Positions 14,701-44,220 of a stretch of 64,000 bases of DNA are shown in pieces (positions within the stretch are counted from its first letter, which is position 1; every line of letters begins with the position of its first letter). Below the pieces are notes generated by a model. That model was not told the DNA's origin and ran no database searches. It saw only the letters and a list, made by a program, of their open reading frames with translations. The stretch is from the NCBI RefSeq assembly GCF_013315695.1, contig NZ_CP054353.1; one strand, written 5' to 3'. This stretch comes from Escherichia coli (GTDB lineage: Bacteria; Pseudomonadota; Gammaproteobacteria; Enterobacterales; Enterobacteriaceae). The position numbers and the translations under genes are program-made.

Positions 14701-17700
14701 TTAGTCAAACGGCGGTGGGGCCAGCACTTCACGATTACCGTTGTGCCCCTGTTCGCTGACAATCCCCTGCGCTTCCATCTGTTCGATAATACGCGCTGCA
14801 CGGTTATAACCAATGCGGAACTGACGCTGTACGCCAGAAATTGATGCTTTGCGTTTTTCAGTGACAAACTGCACCGCCTGATCGAACAACGGATCCAGTT
14901 CTTCAGCGCCATCGAAACCGCCCGCGCCACCTTCGCTTTCACTGTCGGAGGTGATGCCATCAACATACTGTGGGCGGCCACGCGCTTTCCAGTCCTGCAC
15001 CACGGCATGAACTTCCTGATCGCGAACAAAAGCACCATGAACACGTACCGGCAACGTGGAGTTCGGCCCAGAGTAAAGCATATCCCCCATACCCAGCAGT
15101 GATTCCGCGCCAGCCTGATCAAGAATGGTACGTGAGTCAATCTTACTGGATACGGTAAAGGCGATACGGGTCGGAATATTCGCTTTAATCAGACCAGTAA
15201 TAACATCAACCGATGGACGCTGCGTTGCCAGTACGAGGTGGATACCCGCGGCACGGGCTTTTTGCGCCAGACGTGCTATCAGCTCTTCCACTTTTTTACC
15301 TACCGTCATCATCAGGTCGGCAAATTCGTCCACCAACACCACAATGTACGGTTCTTTTTTCAGCACCGGATGCTGGGCATCCATACTGTCACCCGGCTTC
15401 CAGTACGGGTCTGGAATCGGACGCATCATCCTATCGGCTTCAGCAATTTTTTCGTTATAACCCGCCAGATTACGCACACCCAGCGCAGACATCAGTTTAT
15501 AACGACGCTCCATCTCGTTAACACACCAGCGCAGCGCGTTGGCGGCATCTTTCATATCAGTAACGACTTCCGTTAACAGATGCGGAATGCCTTCATAAAC
15601 CGAAAGCTCCAGCATTTTCGGGTCGATCATGATGAAACGAACATCTTCTGGCTGTGCTTTATAAAGCATGCTCAGGATCATCGCGTTCACACCGACAGAC
15701 TTACCGGAACCGGTAGTCCCCGCAACCAACAAGTGCGGCATTTTTGCCAGATCGGCAACCACCGGCTCACCGGCGATATCTTTACCCAGCACCACGGTTA
15801 ATGGCGACGGATTATCGCGGAATTTGGCGTTATCCAAAACTTCGCGCAGATAAACGGTTTGTCGTTTTTTATTCGGTAACTCCAGACCTACATAGGGTTT
15901 GCCAGGAATAACTTCAACGACACGCACCGCCACCGTCGAAAGTGAACGGGCAAGGTCCCGTGACAAGTTAGAAATGCGCGCCGCTTTTACGCCAGGTGCC
16001 AGGTTAAGTTCAAAGCGAGTGATAACTGGCCCCGGAGAGTAATTGACGACATCGGCTTTAATACGGAAATCAGCCAGACGCGCTTCCACCAGACGCGCCA
16101 TTTGTTCAAGCGCAAAGGTATCTACCGGCTCCACTTCGCTCGGCGGAGGTGTCAACAAATCCAGAGAAGGCAGCGGCGTCGTCGGTTTATGCAACGGACG
16201 GCTGTCGCCATTACGCATCAACAGCGGATGAAGCAGGGTATCCTGCGGCTGTGGCGCAACTGGCTGTTGTGGCTGCTGATACTGCGGCTGCGGCGCAACT
16301 GGCTGTTGTGGCTGCTGATATTGCTGCTGCGGCGCAACCGGTTGTTGTGGCTGCTGATACTGCGGCTGCGGCGCAACTGGCTGTTGCGGCTGCTGATATT
16401 GCGGCTGTGGTGCAACCGGCTGTTGCGGCTGCTGATATTGCTGCTGCGGTGCAACCGGCTGTTGCGGCTGCTGATATTGCTGCTGCGGTGCAACCGGCTG
16501 TTGCGGCTGCTGATACTGCGGCTGCGGCGCAACTGGTTGCTGCGGCTGCTGATACTGTTGCTGCGGTGCAATCGGTTGTTGCGGCTGCTGTACAGGTTCA
16601 ACAATTGGCGTAAACAGCGGTTCGTGTGGACCATCATCCAGCAATGCTTTCATTGGCGAAAATTCAAAATCATCCAGAGTGAACGGATTCGCCCCAGCCG
16701 GTTGTTCGCCGGAATAACGTTGTTGTTGAGTTTGAGCAAACTGACGAGCCAGTTCAGCCTCTGCCGCAGCATCTGCATCTTCTGCGTTCACGGGCACATC
16801 ATGTTGATACTGTTCGCCGTAGCGTTGCTGCTGTGTCTGGGCGAATTGACGCGCCAGTTCATCCTGCTGCATCGCATCGATTTCATCATCGTTATACTGA
16901 TCGCCAGAATCATACTGATTGCGCTGGGCTTCACGGGCTTTTTCTTCTGCCGCACGCTGTGAGGGCAGCTTAATACCGTAAGACGCCAGTTCACGACGAG
17001 TTGGCACGCGGATGCGTTTCGGTCGTGGCAACTGGGGGCCAATCCCCTCTTTGACCTGTGGACGCGGTCCACCGCTATTTGCCAGACTGAAGACTGGCGC
17101 GGCAACGGTTGCGGCAGCCCCCGTCGCCAGTGTCGCTTTTTTCACGCCAGATGCCAGCGGAGAAACGGCGGCAGCGGCTTCCACTGGAGGTACTGCTGCA
17201 ACAGAAGGTGCTTTTAGCGAAGATTTGATCGGTTCTGGTTCTTTAACAGGTTCTGGAATCGGTTGATACCAGGCCGCAAGTTGTTCACGTTCACGGGCAC
17301 GCTTCTCTTCCACTTCTTCAAAATAGTAAAGCGGCGGACGCGCGGGTTTTGTCTCTTCTACAACGGGTTCAGGCTCCACAACAGGCTGCTGTTCAACGGG
17401 TTGCGGCTGTTGGTACAACGGCTCCTGAGCGGCTGGCTGCTGATAAGTTTGCTCCGTCTGGTATGTAGACTGTGGAGCAAAAGTGGATTGCTGCTCTTCG
17501 GCTTGCCAGGCGTTACCTGCCACCGATTGTTCTGGCGCAGGGGCGTAATACGGCTGTTGCGCAGACTGTTCCGGCGCAGGAGCGTAGTAAGGTTGTTGCG
17601 CAGATTGTTCAGCTGCAGGTGCATAATACGGCTGCTGTGGCTGTACTGGTTGTTGCAGCGGCTCATTATATTGCACTGCAGGCTGCGCATATTGTGGCTG

Positions 17701-18849
17701 CTGTGGGTAACCTTCCGGTGCAGGAGCAATAACCGGCTCTCCCGTTTGTGGCCCCGGTACAGGCTGCCAGGCTACTGTAGGTTGTGCAGGTGGAACATCA
17801 ACAGAGGCAACAGGCGGCGTCTGAGTCACAGGTTCAACCGGCGCAGCCCAGCTTTGTGTCGCCGTGGTAGCAGCAGCTGCTACAGCAACAGGTTCGGTAA
17901 TTGGCGCACCGTTTAATAATGGATCGTACTCGTCATATTCTGGCTGCGTTGCACGATTGCCCGAAAAGAGGACGTCGTCAGGGTCGGCAGCCACACCGCG
18001 TGCAGTGTAGGTAATCTCTTCGTCATCATCCATCCGCTTACCGGAGAACAACGCAGCGTCTGTTTGCCGCCCCATCGGATTAATGAATTTTTCCGCCAAC
18101 CGTTTACGACGCGCTAGCGCGCCGCGAAGAATACGGGCACGGCGTGATTCATGCTGTTTGCCGTGACTTTCATCTTCTTCATATTCTTCGTCGTCTTCAT
18201 ACTCATCTTCATCGACCCAGGTATCATCGCGACGGGTACGATTACTGGCGAAGGTAAGAATATTTAAAATCCAGCCGCCGAGTTTTTCAGCAATGGTCAC
18301 CCATGACCAACCGGTGAACAGCGTCAGGCCCGCTGCCCAAACGCAGAGCAGTGCAATAGTTCCCCCGCTACTGTGTAGCAGTGGTTGTAGCGTAGTGCTC
18401 AGTAAGCTGCCAATGACGCCACCGGAGGCAAAATACCAGATATCGTCAGCGTTGATTGCCGCCAGACCACAGGAGGTAAGGATGAGCGCCAAAACGCCAA
18501 TGATGCGTAGCGAAACGGCAAAATAATCAATGTATTCGTCGCTGGACTGATGACGCCAGGCAAACCAACAACCGCCGACAATAATGACGGGAATGGTGTA
18601 AGCCATCACGCCAAAAATAAAGAACAGCGTATCTGCCAGCCATGCACCGGGCATCCCACCTAAATTATGGATAGGTTCATGCCAGGCCGTTTGCGACCAG
18701 CTGGGGTCCGAAGGGTTAAAGCTTAGTAAGGCAGCCATCAACCAGACGGCAAACAGGACAATAAGGATCAGCAACGCCTCCAGAAGGCGGCGGCCGCTAC
18801 TTAACTTTGTCAATGTGACTTCTTTGTCTTCAGTGTATTCCTGGCTCAA
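14701..18849 (-). CDS. ftsK: DNA translocase FtsK
   Basis: 1382 aa; N-terminal membrane domain, long PQ-rich linker, C-terminal motor and gamma domain. Confidence 0.95.
16240..16600. repeat. in-frame tandem 39-nt repeats in the ftsK linker (PQQPVAPQ(P/Q)QYQQ x ~9)
   Basis: repeated CTGTTGTGGCTGCTGATACTGCGGCTGCGGCGCAACTGG units on the + strand. Confidence 0.8.
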
Positions 18850-18983
18850 GAAAGGCTCTCCAGGTTACAGGCTTTTCCTGCCCGATGCTAAAACGGACAA
18901 CAGTACCAGGTTACCCCAGTACTGTTGCTGTATGGATTAACAGGAGTGTAATCAAAATACGCCGATTTTGCACCTGTTCCGTG

Positions 18984-33786: not shown

Positions 33787-34197
33787 TCAGAACGGAATAT
33801 CATCACCGTAAGGGTCATCGCCTCCCGCTGGTGGCTGATTACCCTGTGCGCCTGTGGTTTTGCGTCTGTTCCCGCCAGGACGTGCCGCACGGGCACTGAT
33901 TACGCTGTCTGCAATAACCTGATAACCCTGACGCGTCTCCCCGTTCTGTCCGGTCCACTGGCTTACCTGCATCGTGCCGGATACGCTGGCAACGTCGCCT
34001 TTTTGATGTTTAGCCAGGAAGTCGGCCTGCTTACCAAATGCGATGACCGATAGCCATAACGTCGCCTGTCCGTCCTGTGCCTGACTGCATGGCAGTGATA
34101 CCGCCATACGCGCCAGCGTCATCGGTGTGCCCTTGCTGGTCTGTTTTACCTGCGGGTCGTCCACCAGCCGACCGTAAGCCGCTATCTGTGCTGTCAT
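33787..34197 (-). CDS. single-stranded DNA-binding protein (SSB-like)
   Basis: 136 aa; OB-fold pattern (W..V.AFGK.A, KGD.V.V.G, W....G..R) and C-terminal acidic tail ...DDPYGDDIPF typical of SSB. Confidence 0.65.
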   Translation of the reverse strand: MTAQIAAYGRLVDDPQVKQTSKGTPMTLARMAVSLPCSQAQDGQATLWLSVIAFGKQADFLAKHQKGDVASVSGTMQVSQWTGQNGETRQGYQVIADSVISARAARPGGNRRKTTGAQGNQPPAGGDDPYGDDIPF

Positions 34198-34445
34198 GAT
34201 TCCACCTCTCCGGTTTTAACGTTGATGGTTGTTACCTGTTCCGCTTCGGCAATCTCCCGTTCTGTCAGCGTGGCAAAGTTTGCCGCCGCCGTGGTCATGA
34301 ATGCGCTTATCAGGTCGGGATGTTCCTTCGCGTATCCTTCCCGCGTGTGGCGGTCTATCGTTCTGATTGCCACCTTTAAGGTGTGCTCAGTCATGTCTAA
34401 CGCTTTATATTTTGGCTCTGTTCTGTCTCTGCGTGTTCTGGTCAT
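34194..34445 (-). CDS. hypothetical protein (83 aa)
   Basis: ATG 34445 with GAGGTGG SD; stop overlaps the SSB start (ATGA). Confidence 0.4.
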   Translation of the reverse strand: MTRTRRDRTEPKYKALDMTEHTLKVAIRTIDRHTREGYAKEHPDLISAFMTTAAANFATLTEREIAEAEQVTTINVKTGEVES

Positions 34446-34469
34446 TTGCCACCTCAATTTATATATATA

Positions 34470-34805
34470 GAAACATGTGCGGGTTATGCGGGTTATTGGG
34501 TTATCTTAGCGTGCTAACCATTTTTTATCCTTTTATATCAGTATTTTGCAAAACACCCTGTTTATTATTTGCCCACCACGTAACCCGCAAAACGCTCAAA
34601 ATAACCCGCAAACGGGGTTTTTTCTGCGGGTTACGCATGACTGTCCGGTGTTACTTCAGTTATTCGCCTGCGGGTTATAATCGTGCTTTTGCGGGTTATA
34701 AATGCCCTTTTGCGGGTTACGTGCGGGTTATTGGTTTCCTTTATATTCATGCACTTAATACACTTATACACAGGATAACCCGCATAACCCGCAATTTTTT
34801 TCCTC
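34470..34805. repeat. iteron array, candidate replication origin of the island
   Basis: at least 12 copies of GCGGGTTAT / ATAACCCGC in both orientations within ~330 bp of AT-rich DNA, directly downstream of the primase-replicase gene. Confidence 0.65.
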
Positions 34806-34815
34806 ACACAGGGGA

Positions 34816-36939
34816 TTAATCTTCATCATCAGGCTGGAACATCAGCACGTAAAAAACATGCTGCTTACCCCCAATCTTGCCCAGCGCCTTTTTTTTGTAT
34901 CGGCGATCGCTTCCCTTCTCCAGCATTCCGGCAGCATCCAGGGCACGCGCAAAATGCGCCGGATTAAATCCCTTCGCTATCTCACTCTCAAACACGTGCG
35001 GGAACGTGTAATAGCGCATCTCGTCATCTTCGTTGCGAATGCTCCCTTTTCTGTATCCGGCAAGCTCTTTAATCGGTAAATCACGCTCATCTGTATTGGG
35101 GTACGGAAGGTAGCGGCTAAACCCAAACGACGACAAAAACGCCTCAGCCTGTTCAACCATCTGTTTAAATTCCCTGTTACCCGTGCCGAACTCCTTCACC
35201 CAGGCATTAAAGTTATGCTGTATCGCGTCGCGGCATTCCTGCACGACCCAGCCAGTTACATGACCGGAAAGCACAAGCGCGGCCTCCAGTATGGCGAAAC
35301 GTTCACCCACGCGGTGGACCTGCTCGCCGTAGCTCTCCGGTATCAGGTTGCGCCACCGTTCGCGGCATTCCCTTACCGTATCCTTTGCCTCCTGCTGGTG
35401 GCCTGCCAGCCATTTAACCCACTCACGACCCGCCGCCCCGTGATTTGCTGTCCAGGCATCCTTTAACGCGTCAGCATGTTCCTTACCGTTGCTGTATTCG
35501 TGAAATTTCGTGGCTTTTTCCATCGGAACGTTAAGCAGTCGGACAAGCTGCCCCGCCTTAACTTTTATCCCCTCACTTTTGAGGAATGTCTCAACGTCCA
35601 TTTCTCCGGTGCTGATTGCCACCGTTCGCCAGTGTTTGATCTCCCTGTTGCCGCCATCCTTCGCCCCCTGCAATTTCCCTGAACCGTTAAACAGCGTATA
35701 AGCAGACGTTGACACTTCCCGCGCATTTCCGGCCTGGCCTATCTCATCCAGTGGTAAAAGCCCGTCATTATGGGCCTCGGCCTCATTGGCAATACCTAAC
35801 GCCGTGCCGTACCAGGTCAGCCGCTGCGCGTCCGGCTCTCCCCATAAACTTGATGCGATGTTCTGCGTGGTGGTCTTACCTGCCGATGACTGTTCGAAAA
35901 GATGCACCCCGAAGCCGTCAGCACCCACAAGGCCAATTAAAGGCGCTGCCAGTGACGTTGCCACACCCAGCATCATTGAGGCATTACCGCCAGCCAGCCG
36001 CGCCACACTCTCGCGCCAGCCCTCCGCCGTACCCGCCACGGAATAACCGTTAATCGCGGCGCTTTTTCCGGTAAACAGGATCGGTTTTTCAGAATCACCA
36101 ATGATCGAACCGTCCGGCATGATGTACGCGCCAAAATGCCAGCCCGTTGTTGTGCTTAACTGCCATTCCTCATGGCTTCCGCTTAACTGCATCCAGTCCG
36201 CCAGGATTGCCCTGTATTTGCCGTTGGTTGTCACGTTCAGCCCGTGATCTTTAAGTAACCGCCAGCCGTCACGGTCGCCGATACCACCACACGGGATCGC
36301 CATTGTGATGACTTCATGATTTGCTAATTTTTTCCAGCGCATGACGCGGTAATGCTCTTTACCGATCGTCCCCGTTCCCAGTAGTTCAAGCGGAGAACAT
36401 AACCACGTCTCAGGCCGGATAATTTCGCCTGACTGCTTATCCACTTTGGGCGTTACCCAGAAAACACCATCGGCGCGACTTTCAACGCGTGGCTTTAATT
36501 CGTCATCGCTATGGCTTCCGGTATCTTTTTTCTTTACCGGAAACTCAATAACCAGACCATCAGAAAGATTCTGCCGCTCACGGGCCAGATATTCGCGCCA
36601 GTTCTCCACCTCCTGACCGTGCATTCCATCAGGGTAAAAATTTGCATCCTGTACGCCTGCCGCCGCCAGCTTCTGACCAATCGCCTTGATCATTACTGGC
36701 TCAAGATGTCCGGCCCTGAATATGCGTACTGATTTTCGGCCTTCCGGCACAATTTGCAGCTTATCCAGTTCGGCAAGTTGTTGCTCTCCAAGCCAGACAG
36801 GAGGCACGTTATCGCCAGCCAGTCGCCCGTCCTGTTCCTGCCACTGTTTCGCATGTGCCCAGGCATCACTACCCGCAAAAATGATGACTTCCGTCATTTT
36901 GTCACGTGGCTGGTGTTTTAAATTTGGCGCTTTTTTCAT
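34816..36939 (-). CDS. primase/replicase (P4 alpha-like or PICI Pri-Rep-like)
   Basis: ~707 aa from ATG 36939; Walker A-like SSAGKTT; position next to the iteron ori; ATG overlaps the upstream stop. Confidence 0.75.
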   Translation of the reverse strand: MKKAPNLKHQPRDKMTEVIIFAGSDAWAHAKQWQEQDGRLAGDNVPPVWLGEQQLAELDKLQIVPEGRKSVRIFRAGHLEPVMIKAIGQKLAAAGVQDANFYPDGMHGQEVENWREYLARERQNLSDGLVIEFPVKKKDTGSHSDDELKPRVESRADGVFWVTPKVDKQSGEIIRPETWLCSPLELLGTGTIGKEHYRVMRWKKLANHEVITMAIPCGGIGDRDGWRLLKDHGLNVTTNGKYRAILADWMQLSGSHEEWQLSTTTGWHFGAYIMPDGSIIGDSEKPILFTGKSAAINGYSVAGTAEGWRESVARLAGGNASMMLGVATSLAAPLIGLVGADGFGVHLFEQSSAGKTTTQNIASSLWGEPDAQRLTWYGTALGIANEAEAHNDGLLPLDEIGQAGNAREVSTSAYTLFNGSGKLQGAKDGGNREIKHWRTVAISTGEMDVETFLKSEGIKVKAGQLVRLLNVPMEKATKFHEYSNGKEHADALKDAWTANHGAAGREWVKWLAGHQQEAKDTVRECRERWRNLIPESYGEQVHRVGERFAILEAALVLSGHVTGWVVQECRDAIQHNFNAWVKEFGTGNREFKQMVEQAEAFLSSFGFSRYLPYPNTDERDLPIKELAGYRKGSIRNEDDEMRYYTFPHVFESEIAKGFNPAHFARALDAAGMLEKGSDRRYKKKALGKIGGKQHVFYVLMFQPDDED

Positions 36940-37235
36940 TTCTGCTCTCTCCACGCGGCAATCATGTTTTTCAGTTCCTGTAGTTTTTTATCCACATCCA
37001 CACGTGACACATGGTTATTTCTGGAAGTCGGGATTTCCCGCCTGAATCTGCTAATAAAGATCTCCACGTTCAGCGAACTATGAAATGAATAGCCATCACG
37101 AATAAAATACACACGGTCAAACATCAGTTCTTTTACCGTTACTCTGTTGCCGTTCTTATCCAGATAAATAGCGCCGGGGATAATTTTGGGGTGTGCATAA
37201 CCGCTGGCAGTCAAGCCAGATAAATATGTTCTCAT
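36936..37235 (-). CDS. hypothetical protein (99 aa)
   Basis: ATG start; coupled to the primase. Confidence 0.45.
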   Translation of the reverse strand: MRTYLSGLTASGYAHPKIIPGAIYLDKNGNRVTVKELMFDRVYFIRDGYSFHSSLNVEIFISRFRREIPTSRNNHVSRVDVDKKLQELKNMIAAWREQK

Positions 37236-37241
37236 GATTAT

Positions 37242-37562
37242 TTATCCCCGATTTGAATCAGTATTCGCTTTCTTTATAGCATTTAATGCATTTGTGGCAT
37301 TTTCAATGGTGCACCGTAACGAAATATCAAACTGCCCAAGCATTGCCAGTAACAAACCGATATTACCCATATCAATGCGCATGGCCTTTTCGTCATATTC
37401 CTCATTTTCTGACGCATACCACATCAGGCTACCAATTGACGCAATACCCATTGATATATTGTCAGTAGCCCCATCCGCAGCGGAATAAACTTTTTTAGCA
37501 ATATCATGCTCACAGTTAAAATGCGGATTAATCAGGTACTGGTAATTGGTCATGTCAGGCAT
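37242..37562 (-). CDS. hypothetical protein (106 aa)
   Basis: ATG start; first gene of the leftward operon. Confidence 0.45.
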   Translation of the reverse strand: MPDMTNYQYLINPHFNCEHDIAKKVYSAADGATDNISMGIASIGSLMWYASENEEYDEKAMRIDMGNIGLLLAMLGQFDISLRCTIENATNALNAIKKANTDSNRG

Positions 37563-37839
37563 GGCACACCCCCTGACGAATACGGGCGGCGAATACCATC
37601 ACGCAGCCAGCCGGGGATTGCTGGCGTGCTTCCTGTTCGCTGCTGGCCTCAATGGTAATCACGCGCGGTTGTGCCGTGCTCAGGGCGATAAAACGCCAGA
37701 TGTATTTATTCAGGTTGTGCGAGTCCCGCCCTTGCGGGTGTGTGGTATGATTTAACATAGCTACCTCGATACTGTTGCTATCGTTGGTTGTTAGACGCCC
37801 TGCATGTGTTGCGAGCACTGCGGGGCGTTGCTCTTTCAG

Positions 37840-37885
37840 GTGTATTTCACCTTTGCTTTTTAATTTACTCACTGGTGAAATACAC
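37840..37885. promoter_or_regulatory. operator-like perfect 12-bp inverted repeat GTGTATTTCACC-N22-GGTGAAATACAC in a divergent promoter region
   Basis: lies between the divergent 106-aa gene and the small + strand gene. Confidence 0.45.
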
Positions 37886-37951
37886 TTCAAGCCTTTTTTT
37901 ATCATTTTTTTTGCGTATACTGACATACACCAATTTTTAGGAGATCCAGAA

Positions 37952-38131
37952 ATGGCAACTGGTGCAAAGAACGCAAAATCACAAATGACAACTGTCAGAA
38001 TCCCACATGAAGTAATGGATGATATTGAGCAACTTAAAGAACCTGGCGAAAGTACCGCTGGTTTTTTAGTTACTGCCGCAAAAGGCGAGATCAAACGCCG
38101 CCAGCGCCGCAAGGCCAAAGAATCAGAATAA
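37952..38131 (+). CDS. small DNA-binding protein, possibly ribbon-helix-helix (59 aa)
   Basis: ATG with AGGAGA SD; TTVRIPHEVMDDIEQL resembles an RHH beta-strand/helix; basic C-terminus. Confidence 0.4.
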   Translation: MATGAKNAKSQMTTVRIPHEVMDDIEQLKEPGESTAGFLVTAAKGEIKRRQRRKAKESE

Positions 38132-38188
38132 TCACTATCAGCGCCGTGGCGTGAGGTACTCCGGCGCATTGCTTTACAGGTCAGTACT

Positions 38189-38398
38189 ATGAGCAAAAAA
38201 CACCGATCAGCAGATGAGATTTTTGCAGAACAACGAAGATTGCTTTTGCAAAGTATCATTTCACGCCAGCAAGAGAAGGCGCGAGCTAAACAAATGCCAC
38301 CAAATACAGAACCAGCGCCTACAAGATTTGCGCTTGATGATTTTCTCGATAAACACCCCAGGGTAATGAAAGCAAACAAAAACCGCCCACCAGCCTGA
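38189..38398 (+). CDS. hypothetical protein (69 aa)
   Basis: ATG start; followed by a terminator at ~38441-38468. Confidence 0.35.
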   Translation: MSKKHRSADEIFAEQRRLLLQSIISRQQEKARAKQMPPNTEPAPTRFALDDFLDKHPRVMKANKNRPPA

Positions 38399-38440
38399 TA
38401 GCGGCTATCATCCCCGTGCTTATGTTTAGTGTTTCCAAAC

Positions 38441-38468
38441 TGGCGACCTCCCAAGGTCGCCTTTTTTT
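38441..38468 (+). terminator. rho-independent terminator after the rightward small-gene pair
   Basis: GGCGACCTCCCAAGGTCGCC followed by T8. Confidence 0.55.
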
Positions 38469-38488
38469 TATGTGCCATTGTCACCACC

Positions 38489-38698
38489 TCAAGCGGCCTT
38501 GCCTGAATTAATGCGTTCGCGGTTTTTGACCCACGCCACAACCTCAGACTTAACCCAGCCAACAGAACGACCGCCGAGACTGATACGGGAGGGGAAGCGG
38601 CCCTGCTTTTCCATCTCGTAACGAGTTGTGCGGCAAACGCCTGTTAGCTCTCTGCATTCTTTTTCGCGGATTACGCGATCTTCATTTATTTCACGCAT
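38489..38698 (-). CDS. alpA: AlpA-family transcriptional regulator / excisionase-like
   Basis: 69 aa from ATG 38698; helix-turn-helix pattern (CRELTGVCRTTRYEMEKQGRFP...GGRSVGWVKSEVVAWV) and position next to int. Confidence 0.65.
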   Translation of the reverse strand: MREINEDRVIREKECRELTGVCRTTRYEMEKQGRFPSRISLGGRSVGWVKSEVVAWVKNRERINSGKAA

Positions 38699-39107
38699 AC
38701 AAAAACCTACATAAAAATTACGTATATAAACTTTTCTCTTAGCTGTAGATATATGAGATCGGATATTACTTAGATTCTTTTTCACCTCTTAAATTAAAAA
38801 CACAACCATGCTAAAGGCTTTGTTCGCTAAGGTTCGTAGAAGCTCGTTAGTGTTTAAAATCGTGTCACGAGTTTTTAAGCGACGCAACAAAAAATGTCGT
38901 TATTTGGCATGACACCTGAATTACCTCATTAAAAACAAATAGATAAACCATCAGGTGTTGGAACAATCAAGAAACAGAGAATAAGAACTAAGAAGAAGAC
39001 ATTTCAAATTTTTTCAATACTTGACACATATAAATCGTCGATATTTGCCGATATTCGACGATTTATTTTAGAGGGCCATTTTTCGCAAGAAAAACAGCCG
39101 TAATTTG

Positions 39108-40346
39108 TCAAGAATTTTGGGAGTAAATTCGCGGGGTCATAACAACGATTTTTTCATCATTGTTCTGGAGAAGCTCGAGACGCTCAACCCATAGATTAAG
39201 AGCGTCACGTTTTGCATCGAGATAACGGGAGTGATTATAGACTCGTTGCATTCCTGGCAACTGGTGCGCGGTTAGCTGCTCCACTACATGAGGATCCACG
39301 CCTAAATCGTTCAGCATCGTTGTAAACGTGTGCCGGATGTCGTGCAACGTCCAGGGGGCTTGATTAATGCGTCTGTGTGCCGTTCTTCCGTACTCTGATA
39401 CAGATGATTGCCCTTTCAGTTCTCCGAGTAATAAGCCCGTGTGTCGGTTCTGCTCCACCAGCTTCGTTACGAACGGCAAGATCGCTTCCGGTATTGGCCT
39501 GAATATTGCTACCTTCGTTTTGCTGTGTTCTTTCGGCACAGTCCAGAGCATTTCTTTAAAATCCCATTCCTGGACCTCAGAGCGTCTTAGCTCAGTGGTA
39601 CGGCATCCGAAGACAATCAGGAGGCGAATCAGGGCGCTGTAGTACGGTGTGTAAATTTTTTCATCCAGGGCGCGTAGTAATTCCCCAAGCTCCTTGTTTG
39701 TTAGTACGCGCTCGCTTATTTCTGCTTTTTTCCCAACATCACCTACAACCATATCATCTAGAACGTTGGTAATTGCGTAGCGTCGTTTGCGGCAGTACTT
39801 AAGCGCCTGCTTGCATACCTGTAACAAAAATCCTGCTGATACCGGATTACGCATAGCAAGCTGATCAAAACAGGTCAGCCAGTGGCGTAGCTCGCATTTT
39901 TCCAGCGGCATAGCACCAATATGGCTGATTATGTGTGTATTGATCCGGCTTTTCAGAGATTCGTAATCTGTGCGCTTTTCCTTCGCGTACGATTCAAGCC
40001 AGTAAGTGAGCGCTTCCTTAACCGTAACAGGTGATAACGCTTCCTGTACGGTGTGATTAAGCTCATGGCGTGGATTTTTACCCTCAGCAAGCCAGGCGCG
40101 ACACTGCGACGCTTTTTCCCTGGCTGCTTTCAGGCTCAAATCTGGATAATTTCCCAGCCTCAGACGTTCAGGGGCTACCTTCCTGCCTGTTCCGGCCCTG
40201 TAAGTGAAATACCAGGTTAACAGGCCATTGGTTGAATGCCTTACGCTAAGGTTGCCACCATCATTAAAAAAGGTGTTTTTTGTGGTTGGTGATCCGCTTA
40301 ATTTTCGTAAAAGAGTGTCGCTAAGTCTATGAATTGCCCTGCTCAT
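39108..40346 (-). CDS. tyrosine site-specific integrase (P4-type)
   Basis: 412 aa; C-terminal catalytic motifs (R..TELRRSE, HDIRHTF, Y near the C-terminus); at the island edge. Confidence 0.9.
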   Translation of the reverse strand: MSRAIHRLSDTLLRKLSGSPTTKNTFFNDGGNLSVRHSTNGLLTWYFTYRAGTGRKVAPERLRLGNYPDLSLKAAREKASQCRAWLAEGKNPRHELNHTVQEALSPVTVKEALTYWLESYAKEKRTDYESLKSRINTHIISHIGAMPLEKCELRHWLTCFDQLAMRNPVSAGFLLQVCKQALKYCRKRRYAITNVLDDMVVGDVGKKAEISERVLTNKELGELLRALDEKIYTPYYSALIRLLIVFGCRTTELRRSEVQEWDFKEMLWTVPKEHSKTKVAIFRPIPEAILPFVTKLVEQNRHTGLLLGELKGQSSVSEYGRTAHRRINQAPWTLHDIRHTFTTMLNDLGVDPHVVEQLTAHQLPGMQRVYNHSRYLDAKRDALNLWVERLELLQNNDEKIVVMTPRIYSQNS

Positions 40347-40750
40347 GTTTCGAATTTCCGGTCATCAAAATTAACTACACCATTGACTACACCGAGCATC
40401 GTACAAGGGCGAACTGTGACGAACAAGGGCGAACAAGAAAAACGAAATTATCCTTTATAATCATAGAAATAAATGAGATACCTACACCATGACGAACACC
40501 CACGAACACTAACTGATAAATAACTATCATCTATCGTTGGCATCAGCGACATCTGTCACATTCCTGTCAATAGCGTTAACTGCTTCAAATTTTTGATTCA
40601 TACCTGCCCCCTGGCCCCTGTCAAATGCTTGACGGCTCGCCCTAATTCTCTAAATTGTATTTCTAGAGTTGGCGAGGTTTTGAACAGCCCCCTCTCTGAC
40701 CCCGGTTTATTCCATCTTACTTGTATAAGATTTGCGAAGGATGTCGAAGC

Positions 40751-40975
40751 ATGGAAAAGGGTACTGTTAAGTGGTTCAACAATGCCAAAGGGTTTGGTTT
40801 CATCTGCCCTGAAGGCGGCGGCGAAGATATTTTCGCTCATTATTCCACCATTCAGATGGATGGTTACAGAACGCTAAAAGCTGGACAATCCGTTCAGTTT
40901 GATGTCCACCAGGGGCCAAAAGGCAATCACGCCAGTGTTATTGTGCCCGTCGAAGTAGAAGCGGCAGTCGCATAG
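40751..40975 (+). CDS. cspD: cold-shock-like protein CspD
   Basis: 74 aa MEKGTVKWFNNAKGFGFICPEGGGEDIFAHYSTIQMDGYRTLKAGQSVQFDVHQGPKGNHASVIVPVEVEAAVA. Confidence 0.95.
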   Translation: MEKGTVKWFNNAKGFGFICPEGGGEDIFAHYSTIQMDGYRTLKAGQSVQFDVHQGPKGNHASVIVPVEVEAAVA

Positions 40976-41047
40976 CTCTTCTGTCTCATTGTGTACATCC
41001 TAAAGGCAAAATGCCAGCCCGATCGGCTGGCATTTTTATCTCAAAAA

Positions 41048-42994
41048 TTACTCTCGTGCCAGAGCATCTACTGGATCCAGTCGTGCCGCATTTCGTGCGG
41101 GTAACCAGCCAAATAAAATCCCGGTGACCGTCGAGCAGAGAAATGCCAGCAGCAGCGCCAACGGTGAAAAACCGATCTCCCAGCCGGGTAAGAAAAGCTG
41201 CAAGGTGAAAGCAATTAACAGTGACAGTGTTATTCCCAACGCGCCACCGACCAGGCAAACCAGTACGGCTTCGATCAGGAACTGTTGCAAAACATCACTT
41301 GCTCGCGCACCTACAGCCATGCGAATGCCAATTTCCCGCGTCCGCTCGGTCACTGACACCAGCATAATATTCATTACACCAATACCGCCCACCACCAGCG
41401 AAATCACCGCCACCAGCGTCAGAAACAGTTGTAAAGTACGTGTGGTCTTTTCAACGGTTTTCAAGACGCCGTCCATGTTCCAGGTAAAGAAATCCTTCTT
41501 ACCGTGGCGCAGTGAAAGTAAACGCGTGAGTTGCTGTTCCGCCTCGGCGCTGTCAAATCCTTCTTTCACCCTGACAGTAATGGAGTTCAGCCACGACTGG
41601 CCCATAACTCGCCCGGACATCGTGCTGTAAGGTAGCCAGACACGCAGCACTTTACTGCTACCAAACATCGACTGTTTTTCTTCCGCCACACCAATGACTC
41701 TGGCGGGCATATTGCCGACCAGAATTACCTCACCAACCACATCTGCTTTATGGGGGAAAAGCTGGCGGCGAGTATTACTGTCGAGAACCACGACCTGCGC
41801 ACGACCGTTCAGCTGCTCCTGATTAAAGGTGTTCCCTTCACTGAAGGTCATGCCATAGACATTAAAATAATCGCCGCTCACGCCATTGGCACTGGCAGCC
41901 ACATCAACATTGTTATAACGCAGGTGCAGGTTTTGCGAGACGGCAGGTGTGGCTGAGGCGACCCACGGTTGTTTTTGGATGGCGATTAAGTCATCGTACT
42001 TCAGCGCCTGCTGATATTGCGGATCGTCATCGCCAAAATCTTTCCCGGGATAGACATCAATAGTATTCGTACCAATAGAACGAATATCCGCCAGCACCAT
42101 TTGTTTGGCGGCGTCGCCCACCACGACAATGGAAACCACCGACGCAATACCGATAATAATCCCCAGCATGGTCAGTAAAGTACGCATTTTATTCGCTGCC
42201 AGCGCCCGCCATGCCATCGTCAGCGCTTCGTTAAAACCGCTGACAAATTGCCGCCAGCCAGAGGCCGTGTTGACAACAGGTTCCGTCCCGCCAGCAACAT
42301 TCACTTTTTCAATGGCGGGAGGATTGCGCACAATTTCACCGTCACGAATTTCGATCACCCGCTCGGCCTGAGCAGCGACCTGCGGATCGTGGGTAACGAT
42401 AATCACCGTATGCCCGCGATCGCGCAGCTGATGCAGGATCGCCATCACCTCTTCGCCAGAATGGCTGTCCAGTGCGCCGGTTGGTTCATCGGCAAGAATT
42501 ACCTGACCGCCGTTCATCAATGCCCGCGCGATGCTGACACGCTGTTGCTGACCACCCGAAAGCTGTGCCGGATAATACTCTGTACGGTCTTCCAGCCCCA
42601 GTCGTTGCAGCAACTCCTGGGCGCGAAGCAGCCGCTGTTTCCGCTCAAGACCAGCATAGACAGCGGGTACTTCAACGTTCTGCTCGGCGGTTAAATGCGA
42701 AAGCAAATGGTAACGCTGGAAAATAAAGCCGAAATGCTCGCGGCGCAGTTGCGCCAGCGCATCGGCGTCCAGCGTGGCAACATCCTGACCGGCGACGCGA
42801 TAGGTGCCGCTGGTGGCCTTATCCAGGCAGCCGAGAATATTCATCAGGGTCGATTTACCGGAACCCGAAGCGCCAACAATCGCTACCATCTCACCGGCAT
42901 AAATATCGAGGCTGATGCCCTTCAGCACCTCAACCTGCTCATCACCGGCAGGATAGCTGCGACGAATATCCTTTAATTCGAGCAAGGGCGTCAT
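41048..42994 (-). CDS. macB: macrolide ABC exporter ATPase/permease MacB
   Basis: 648 aa; N-terminal ABC ATPase plus C-terminal FtsX-like permease. Confidence 0.95.
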
Positions 42995-44106
42995 TGTGCA
43001 GCTCCTGGTTTGTCCTCACCAATCACCACTTCATCGCCCGCTTCCAGCCCTTTGACAATCTCAACATCGGTATCGTTACGTGCGCCAATCGTCACTTCAC
43101 GCTCCCGTGTTTCACCATTACGCAACAATTTGACTTTATAACGATTATCGCCAACCGGATCGCCTAACGCCGACAGAGGGATCGTCAGCACATTTTTCAC
43201 ATCGGTGAGCTGAATATGCACTTGCGCGGTCATATCCAGCCGCAGCAAACCATTGGGGTTGGGTACTTCAAAACGGGCGTAATAGAAAATAGCGTCGTTA
43301 ACCTTTTCCGGCGTCGGTAGCACATCCTTGATTTGCCCCTCGTAGCGCGTCAGTGGATCGCCAAGCACCGTAAACCAGGCTTTTTGCCCCGGCTTCAGGT
43401 GGATTACATCCGCTTCAGAAACCTGCGCTTTTACCAGCATGGTGCTCATATCTGCCAGCGTCAGAATGTTCGGTGCTTGTTGTGCGGCAATCACCGTCTG
43501 GCCTTGCAGAGTGGTGATTTGCGTGACTTCCCCGGCCATCGGAGCAACGATGCGGGTGTAATCGAGATTGGTTTTAGCCGTATCGAGAGAGGCCTGATTG
43601 CGCTTGATTTGCGCGTCAATGGTGCCAATTTGCGCCTGTTTCACAGCCATCTCCGTCGCGGCGGTATCGAGATCCTGCTGTGAAACCGCTTGCGTTTGTG
43701 CAAGACGTTGCTGACGGGAATACGTCACCCGCGCCAGTTTCAGCTCCGCTTCCGCCTGCTGCCGCTGCGCGCGTAGCTCCATCAGCGTTGCTTCCACCTC
43801 CTTAATCTGGTTTTCAGCCTGTTCAGGATCAATAACCCCTAAAAGCTGGTCTTTTTTTACTTTATCGCCAATCGCCACCGACAGCGTTTTCAACTGACCG
43901 CTGACCTGCGCGCCCACGTCAACCTTACGCAGCGCGTCCAGCTTTCCGGTCGCCAGCACGCTTTGCTGTAAATCACCGGGGCGCACAATCAGCGTCTGAT
44001 AAGTCGGCTCGGGTGCGTTAAGAATTCTCCATAACGTAATCAGTCCGGCGATGACTATCACCAGCGCAATAACGTAACGCTTCTTCACGGTTTTCCGCTT
44101 TTTCAT
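42991..44106 (-). CDS. macA: macrolide exporter periplasmic adaptor MacA
   Basis: 371 aa from ATG 44106 ([18 protein letters not shown]...). Confidence 0.95.
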
Positions 44107-44220
44107 AAATATTCTGAATACTCCATATGCCAATCCGGGTCATTAACTTCAACGAAATATCAACAAAACCCTAAAATTTACGTTAGTAATCACACTATTG
44201 ATGTTTGGTTAAGATACGCA

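Follow-up and report, generated by a model that had tools for sequence, protein, structure and literature searches.

The ftsK gene of this Escherichia coli strain carries two in-frame arrays of 39-bp repeats, and both are VNTR loci already published for strain typing. Together they form a long allele combination, but one that has been described before and is already known. We analyzed a 64,000-nucleotide stretch of DNA, called the window here, in which ftsK encodes a protein of 1382 amino acids, 53 more than the 1329 of K-12 FtsK. Very probably, the arrays are two coding minisatellites in the FtsK linker that gain and lose whole units and thereby lengthen a tether in a nearly neutral manner.

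The ftsK gene and its two repeat arrays

The open reading frame (ORF) at 14701 to 18849 on the minus strand begins with TTG, as does K-12 ftsK. It stands in the order lrp-ftsK-lolA, with lrp upstream and lolA downstream, as evidenced by the ORFs of the window and by the annotation of an identical locus (L002), which agrees. Over its 4149 nt, the gene is 100% identical to the one annotated as WP_016234723.1 in NZ_OZ547117.1 and NZ_LR898874.1. Pfam places FtsK_4TM (PF13491; E = 5e-42), the membrane and divisome domain that anchors the linker at its N terminus, at residues 20 to 191 (18277 to 18792, minus strand). The C-terminal DNA pump spans 14719 to 16173 on the minus strand, as evidenced by Pfam and by PDB entries 2IUS, 2IUT, and 2J5P, and consists of FtsK_alpha (residues 893 to 993), the FtsK_SpoIIIE motor (residues 1001 to 1214), and FtsK_gamma, which is the KOPS/XerD domain (residues 1317 to 1377). 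Moreover, the crystallized E. coli FtsK C-terminal construct 2IUS aligns with residues 871 to 1382 (E = 0). With the 4TM domain, the alpha, motor, and gamma domains, and the lrp-ftsK-lolA context all present, the gene is the E. coli ortholog of FtsK, a DNA translocase of the FtsK/SpoIIIE type.

Between these ends lies a linker of roughly residues 192 to 870, and residues 180 to 870 are 17% Gln, 15% Pro, and 13% Ala. Both arrays fall inside it, between the end of the 4TM domain at residue 191 and the start of the alpha domain at residue 893. Array 1 (16240 to 16590, minus strand; residues 754 to 870) consists of nine in-register 39-nt units that encode QQPQQP[V/I]APQ[P/Q]Q[Y/D], as established by TRF and a unit table. 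TRF reports it at 16243 to 16590 with a period of 39, 8.9 copies, 90% matches, 0% indels, and a score of 507. The array makes up the final 117 residues of the linker, and its end abuts the start of the 2IUS motor construct at residue 871. Array 2 (17521 to 17637, minus strand; residues 405 to 443) has three 39-nt units that encode QQPYYAPA[A/P]EQS[A/V], again by TRF and a unit table; TRF reports it at 17528 to 17634 with a 39-nt period, 2.7 copies, and 79% matches. These two arrays aside, TRF detected no tandem repeat with a score of at least 80 in the entire 64-kb window.

The units of each array differ from one another mainly at synonymous sites. Eleven columns of the 39-nt unit vary in array 1, of which 8 are third codon positions (Fisher P = 0.002); for array 2, the corresponding figure is 10 of 12 (P = 2e-5). 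This pattern indicates that the peptide sequence of the unit is conserved and that the units are old enough to have diverged. Pairwise differences between the units of array 1 single out units 3 and 4 (16435 to 16512, minus strand) as the sole pair that is identical in nucleotide sequence.

A global alignment with K-12 FtsK accounts for all 53 extra residues: array 1 contributes 39 of them (nine units versus six in K-12), array 2 contributes 13 (three units versus two), and a single Glu makes up the rest. The Glu codon corresponds to an alignment gap at approximately 18178 to 18180, within an acidic run of short GAA/GAT/GAC-type repeats (18145 to 18237, minus strand) that was recognized from its sequence and alignment gaps and in which TRF finds periods of 6 and 9 at 18169 to 18213. 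The same alignment contains eight amino acid substitutions. An initial annotation, made from the sequence alone, had identified the ORF as an ftsK of 1382 residues as opposed to 1329 in K-12, and the ORF list, Pfam, and the alignment bear this out. It had also assigned the whole of the extra length to two in-frame 39-nt arrays in the linker, which is correct for 52 of the 53 residues but not for the Glu in the acidic run. Its count of about nine copies, as well as its coordinates and motifs for both arrays, agrees with TRF and the unit table. Its description of the repeats as perfect, by contrast, holds for period and frame but not for sequence, given the 90% and 79% matches and the single identical pair of units.

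Both arrays are also overlaid by ORFs in other frames. Over array 1 lie antisense ORFs at 16102 to 16962 (plus strand; 286 aa), which encodes a Leu/Arg-rich periodic peptide, and at 16149 to 16613 (plus strand; 154 aa), together with an off-frame ORF at 16218 to 16637 (minus strand; 139 aa). Over array 2 lie an antisense ORF at 17263 to 17916 (plus strand; 217 aa), an ORF at 17472 to 17732 (plus strand; 86 aa), and an off-frame ORF at 17358 to 17729 (minus strand; 123 aa). The peptides encoded by all six are periodic and of low complexity, and each ORF is wholly contained in the conserved ftsK frame. Three of the six were searched against Pfam (those at 16102 to 16962, 16149 to 16613, and 17263 to 17916, all on the plus strand), and none of these three matched a family. 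The initial annotation had anticipated spurious antisense ORFs, and they are indeed present over both arrays. Periodic DNA that is rich in CAG/CCG and free of stop codons gives rise to these overlapping and antisense ORFs as by-products; the ORF at 16102 to 16962, for instance, owes its open frame to array 1.

Published typing loci and copy number across E. coli

Array 1 is the locus known as CVN001 in the generic E. coli MLVA scheme of Lindstedt and as ms07 in the Shigella MLVA paper of Gorge et al., who equate the two names. A published table enters the locus as "CNV001 (ftsK)" together with primers, which map in the window to 16685 to 16705 with no mismatches and to 16151 to 16172 with one mismatch. 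The original CVN001 primers, given in PMC8143711 along with the formula by which the allele number equals (product − 250)/39, map to 16685 to 16703 with no mismatches and to 16142 to 16161 with two mismatches. The resulting in silico amplicon (16142 to 16703) is 562 bp long, and (562 − 250)/39 is exactly 8, which makes the window CVN001 MLVA allele 8. The difference between the nine units counted and the MLVA number of 8 is a one-unit shift that comes from the offset convention. The ms07 primers also bracket array 1 in the window. Altogether, three published primer pairs place uniquely around 16240 to 16590, each primer with 0 to 2 mismatches, and shuffles gave no chance matches. CVN001/ms07 and array 1 share the 39-bp unit, the gene, the allele range, and the allele frequencies, and we see no essential difference between them.

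Array 2 likewise corresponds to a published locus. A second 39-bp locus of Gorge et al., ms06, has reported alleles 2, 3, and 4. Its two primers have exact matches in the window at 17728 to 17747 (minus strand) and 17408 to 17427 (plus strand); they flank array 2 and define an in silico amplicon of 340 bp (17408 to 17747). The placement of ms06 inside ftsK comes from this mapping of its primers in the window. The published alleles are the same as the copy numbers in complete genomes, and here too there is no essential difference. We had entertained the idea that array 2 was a VNTR new to the literature, notable for the striking distribution of its three alleles, and we dropped it in view of the exact ms06 primer matches on both sides. 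A 39-bp match encountered in a review of E. coli typing proved to be the JUMPstart element rather than ftsK.

When 5,426 complete E. coli genomes were searched, the full-length ftsK matches measured between 3990 and 4149 nt, with most lengths separated by 39-nt steps. Copy number was examined in a rank-spaced sample of 60 of these genomes, with array 1 and its flanks as the query. In this search, genomes with six units already reached 100% coverage, so the rank of joined BLAST pieces does not discriminate copy number. Thirteen loci were read directly, and rows without a direct reading were placed according to the span of their alignment or by comparison with verified neighbors of the same alignment pattern (about a third of the rows by such analogy). 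On these terms, array 1 has six units in approximately 22 of the 60 genomes, seven in approximately 24, eight in 5, nine in approximately 2 (one of which is the exact match itself), and five in 1, while 6 are irregular or shorter. Array 2 has one, two, three, and four copies in 1, 18, 21, and 20 genomes, respectively. In the loci that were fetched, array 1 spans 5.5 to 9 units, and the alignment span of one further genome fits approximately 3 units. Irregular alleles, whose differences are not whole units, number 6 in the sample of 60, which indicates that events beyond clean unit slippage also occur.

These counts reproduce the published CVN001 frequencies after the one-unit shift. A Swedish survey reported allele 5 at 40%, allele 6 at 40%, allele 7 at 13%, allele 8 at 5%, and allele 4 at 1%, and the published allele ranges for CVN001/ms07 are 4 to 8 and 2 to 8. 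This puts array 1 of the window at the upper limit of the known E. coli range, though not beyond it, with CVN001 allele 8 being the top survey class, and array 2 with three copies is an ordinary, common allele (21 of 60). The initial annotation had called the repeats expanded and had proposed that linker length be compared across strains. Linker length does vary (5.5 to 9 units for array 1 and 1 to 4 for array 2), and "expanded" is apt relative to K-12; within E. coli at large, only array 1 is at the top of the range.

How copy number changes

The alleles nearest to that of the window are those of MS 21-1, with 2 substitutions in 4.1 kb, and SMS-3-5, with 11 substitutions, and each of them aligns to it with one 39-nt gap. 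Both hold a single CAGCAGCCGCAACAGCCGGTTGCACCGCAGCAGCAATAT unit in place of the two identical neighboring copies of the window (16435 to 16512). Because these alleles lack exactly one of the identical units 3 and 4, the ninth unit is best read as a recent single-unit duplication on an eight-unit background. The next-closest group, which is ST648-like and differs by 49 substitutions, has seven units. The second unit of the ST648 allele is a hybrid that joins the 5′ part of unit 2 of the window to the 3′ part of unit 3/4, and it marks a misaligned exchange inside units. That neighboring alleles differ by whole 39-nt units also agrees with the expectation in the initial annotation that such repeats expand and contract.

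We propose the following mechanism. A low-complexity linker rich in Pro, Gln, and Ala tethers the membrane-anchored divisome domain to the C-terminal hexameric DNA pump. Entire units of 39 nt (13 residues) would be gained or lost within it, via replication slippage or via unequal recombination between units, and since the steps are whole units, the reading frame would always be kept. Slippage and RecA-dependent unequal exchange would leave products that sequence alone does not distinguish. Each unit would add 13 more residues of flexible tether, and the variation in copy number is most likely near neutral. According to the literature, the E. coli FtsK linker is about 650 aa long, Pro/Gln-rich, and unstructured, and its length varies between species. 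[quoted passage not shown]

Two readings would place the origin of the ninth unit elsewhere. One is that the nine-unit array is an assembly artifact, with a spurious second copy of one unit. In its favor, the additional unit exactly matches the neighboring one, a duplication that an assembler could in principle produce, and the exact nine-unit array occurs in only 4 of the 5,426 complete genomes. However, the gene recurs without a single difference over its 4149 nt in four complete genomes that were deposited separately, two of which come, by their source records, from the United Kingdom (blood culture) and Australia (rectal swab), and the exact 1382-aa protein is found on 388 contigs. Moreover, the longest exact repeat inside array 1 is 68 nt, so ordinary reads of at least 100 nt span the ambiguity. 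Nine units, arranged in a different order, also occur in a second, unrelated lineage (L003). Independent evidence comes from MLVA with PCR fragment sizing, which found allele class 8 in 5% of isolates. Assembly collapse or expansion, which the initial annotation had raised, is thus unlikely, and to a spuriously duplicated unit in this array we assign almost no probability. The other reading is that the long allele was not made in situ but was imported as a block from another lineage by homologous recombination. E. coli core genes do recombine, and the 85 substitutions across the gene between the window and K-12 indicate that most of the differences reflect old allelic divergence rather than recent slippage. 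The step from eight to nine units, however, carries the signature of a local duplication, in that the closest allele differs by 2 substitutions and by a gap of exactly one unit at the identical pair. The L003 lineage, with its different unit order and only 93.6% identity over the region, is not the donor. We therefore regard block import as highly improbable.

A different question is whether copy number serves as a functional tuning knob, with selection maintaining different linker lengths because the tether would determine how far the DNA pump reaches, or when it acts, with respect to the closing septum. The alleles of array 2 are nearly equal in frequency (18, 21, and 20 of 60), the unit peptide is conserved despite synonymous divergence, and published work links linker deletions to filamentation and describes contacts of the linker with FtsQ, FtsL, FtsI, and FtsZ. 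Against this, the length differences between alleles amount to only some 2 to 8% of a linker of approximately 690 aa, and copy number mostly tracks lineage, with ST131 reported to be monomorphic at CVN001 and the alleles nearest in sequence to that of the window having nine, eight, or seven units. In addition, in S. Enteritidis a published swap of ftsK alleles that differ in two of nine repeats left the one phenotype tested unchanged. Taken together, these observations make a tuning function improbable, and we favor nearly neutral gain and loss of whole units. A related idea is that balancing or lineage-specific selection acts on linker length, for which the alleles of arrays 1 and 2 together span approximately 100 residues, through the reach of the pump from the closing septum. 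We consider it very improbable; if it were true, the nearly equal frequencies of two, three, and four copies at array 2 would be signs of selection, as would the strong divergence of the units at synonymous sites only.

Related loci and implications

Repeats of this kind are not confined to E. coli ftsK. In Salmonella enterica, the homologous locus STTR7/SENTR2 is described as a 39-bp repeat that, like array 1, lies in frame in the Pro/Gln-rich linker of FtsK. It is an MLVA marker in Salmonella ftsK, with 9.3 copies in S. Enteritidis, and indels between strains drop entire repeats. However, it belongs to another species, and a reported indel of 84 bp is not a multiple of 39, so the boundaries or the length of its units may differ from those of array 1. 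Other E. coli envelope and division proteins also contain in-frame VNTRs, one example being CVN004 in tolA, which is likewise described as a coding repeat in the extended linker of a membrane-anchored protein and is used as an MLVA marker like the ftsK arrays, although it lies in another gene and its unit is 15 bp.

For genome annotation, ORFs in other frames that overlap the arrays should not be annotated as genes. For typing, the strain can be assigned in silico from its genome sequence, as CVN001 allele 8 with three copies at ms06. Finally, the difference in length between FtsK of K-12 (1329 aa) and that of the window (1382 aa) comes from two VNTR loci that were already known, together with an indel of one codon, and differences in FtsK length between strains should not be taken as frameshifts, misassemblies, or new domains.

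Periodicity and length variation within ftsK

Array 1, the run of nine 39-nt units in the ftsK linker, was scored by Tandem Repeats Finder at two periods over 16243-16590 on the minus strand. The 117-nt period, equivalent to three units, slightly outscored the 39-nt period (563 versus 507), and thus the sequence hints at a higher-order repeat structure. Along the array, the units carry proline (P) or glutamine (Q) at their P/Q position in the order Q P Q Q P P Q P P; three-periodicity is not strict.

The same program detected periods of 6 and 9 nt in an acidic run of short GAA/GAT/GAC repeats at about 18169-18213. Between the window and K-12, this run displays a length polymorphism of one Glu codon, and 3-nt offsets among ftsK lengths (e.g., 4146 versus 4149 nt) are explained by this polymorphism.

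ftsK matches and neighboring genes in complete genomes

Across four megablast searches of 5,426 complete E. coli genomes, an ftsK match was absent from a single genome. ftsK is an essential gene, and the genome in question is probably mislabelled or highly divergent. Depending on the search, 8 to 17 matches in these genomes fell on records labelled as plasmids. They may represent pieces of chromosome deposited under a plasmid label or, alternatively, plasmid-borne FtsK-like genes. The 88,440-bp record NZ_CP134387.1 from strain TUM11352 holds a full ftsK array-2 region (the second block of 39-nt linker units), with four copies of the unit, at 55837-56276.

In NZ_OZ547117.1, from a complete E. 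coli genome whose ftsK is identical to that of the window, the RefSeq annotation describes the genes downstream of the ftsK region (34167-44149). In this annotation, ycaM is frameshifted and is followed by a gene pair with EAL-domain and GGDEF-domain products and then by a cellulose synthase cluster. The cluster is decayed, with an internal stop in bcsA and a bcsB gene split by an IS1A element.

A palindrome upstream of ftsK

The lrp-ftsK intergenic region contains a LexA-box-like palindrome, CTGTATGGATTAACAG, at 18928-18943. This perfect CTGT-N8-ACAG element precedes the TTG start codon of ftsK by 79-94 nt and is the only match to that pattern across the 64-kb window, for which shuffled sequences give a chance expectation of 0.7 matches. 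The palindrome would fit with dinH, an SOS-inducible promoter that has been described for ftsK.

A duplicated motif in the linker

The ftsK linker also encodes two copies of a 14-amino-acid motif on the minus strand, at 16714-16755 (residues 699-712) and 16819-16860 (residues 664-677). The copies are spaced 35 residues apart, and alignment with K-12 FtsK indicated that the motif is present there too. Their peptides are identical despite nucleotide differences at 10 of 42 positions, every one of them synonymous, which suggests that this conserved, duplicated motif of the FtsK linker is under purifying selection.
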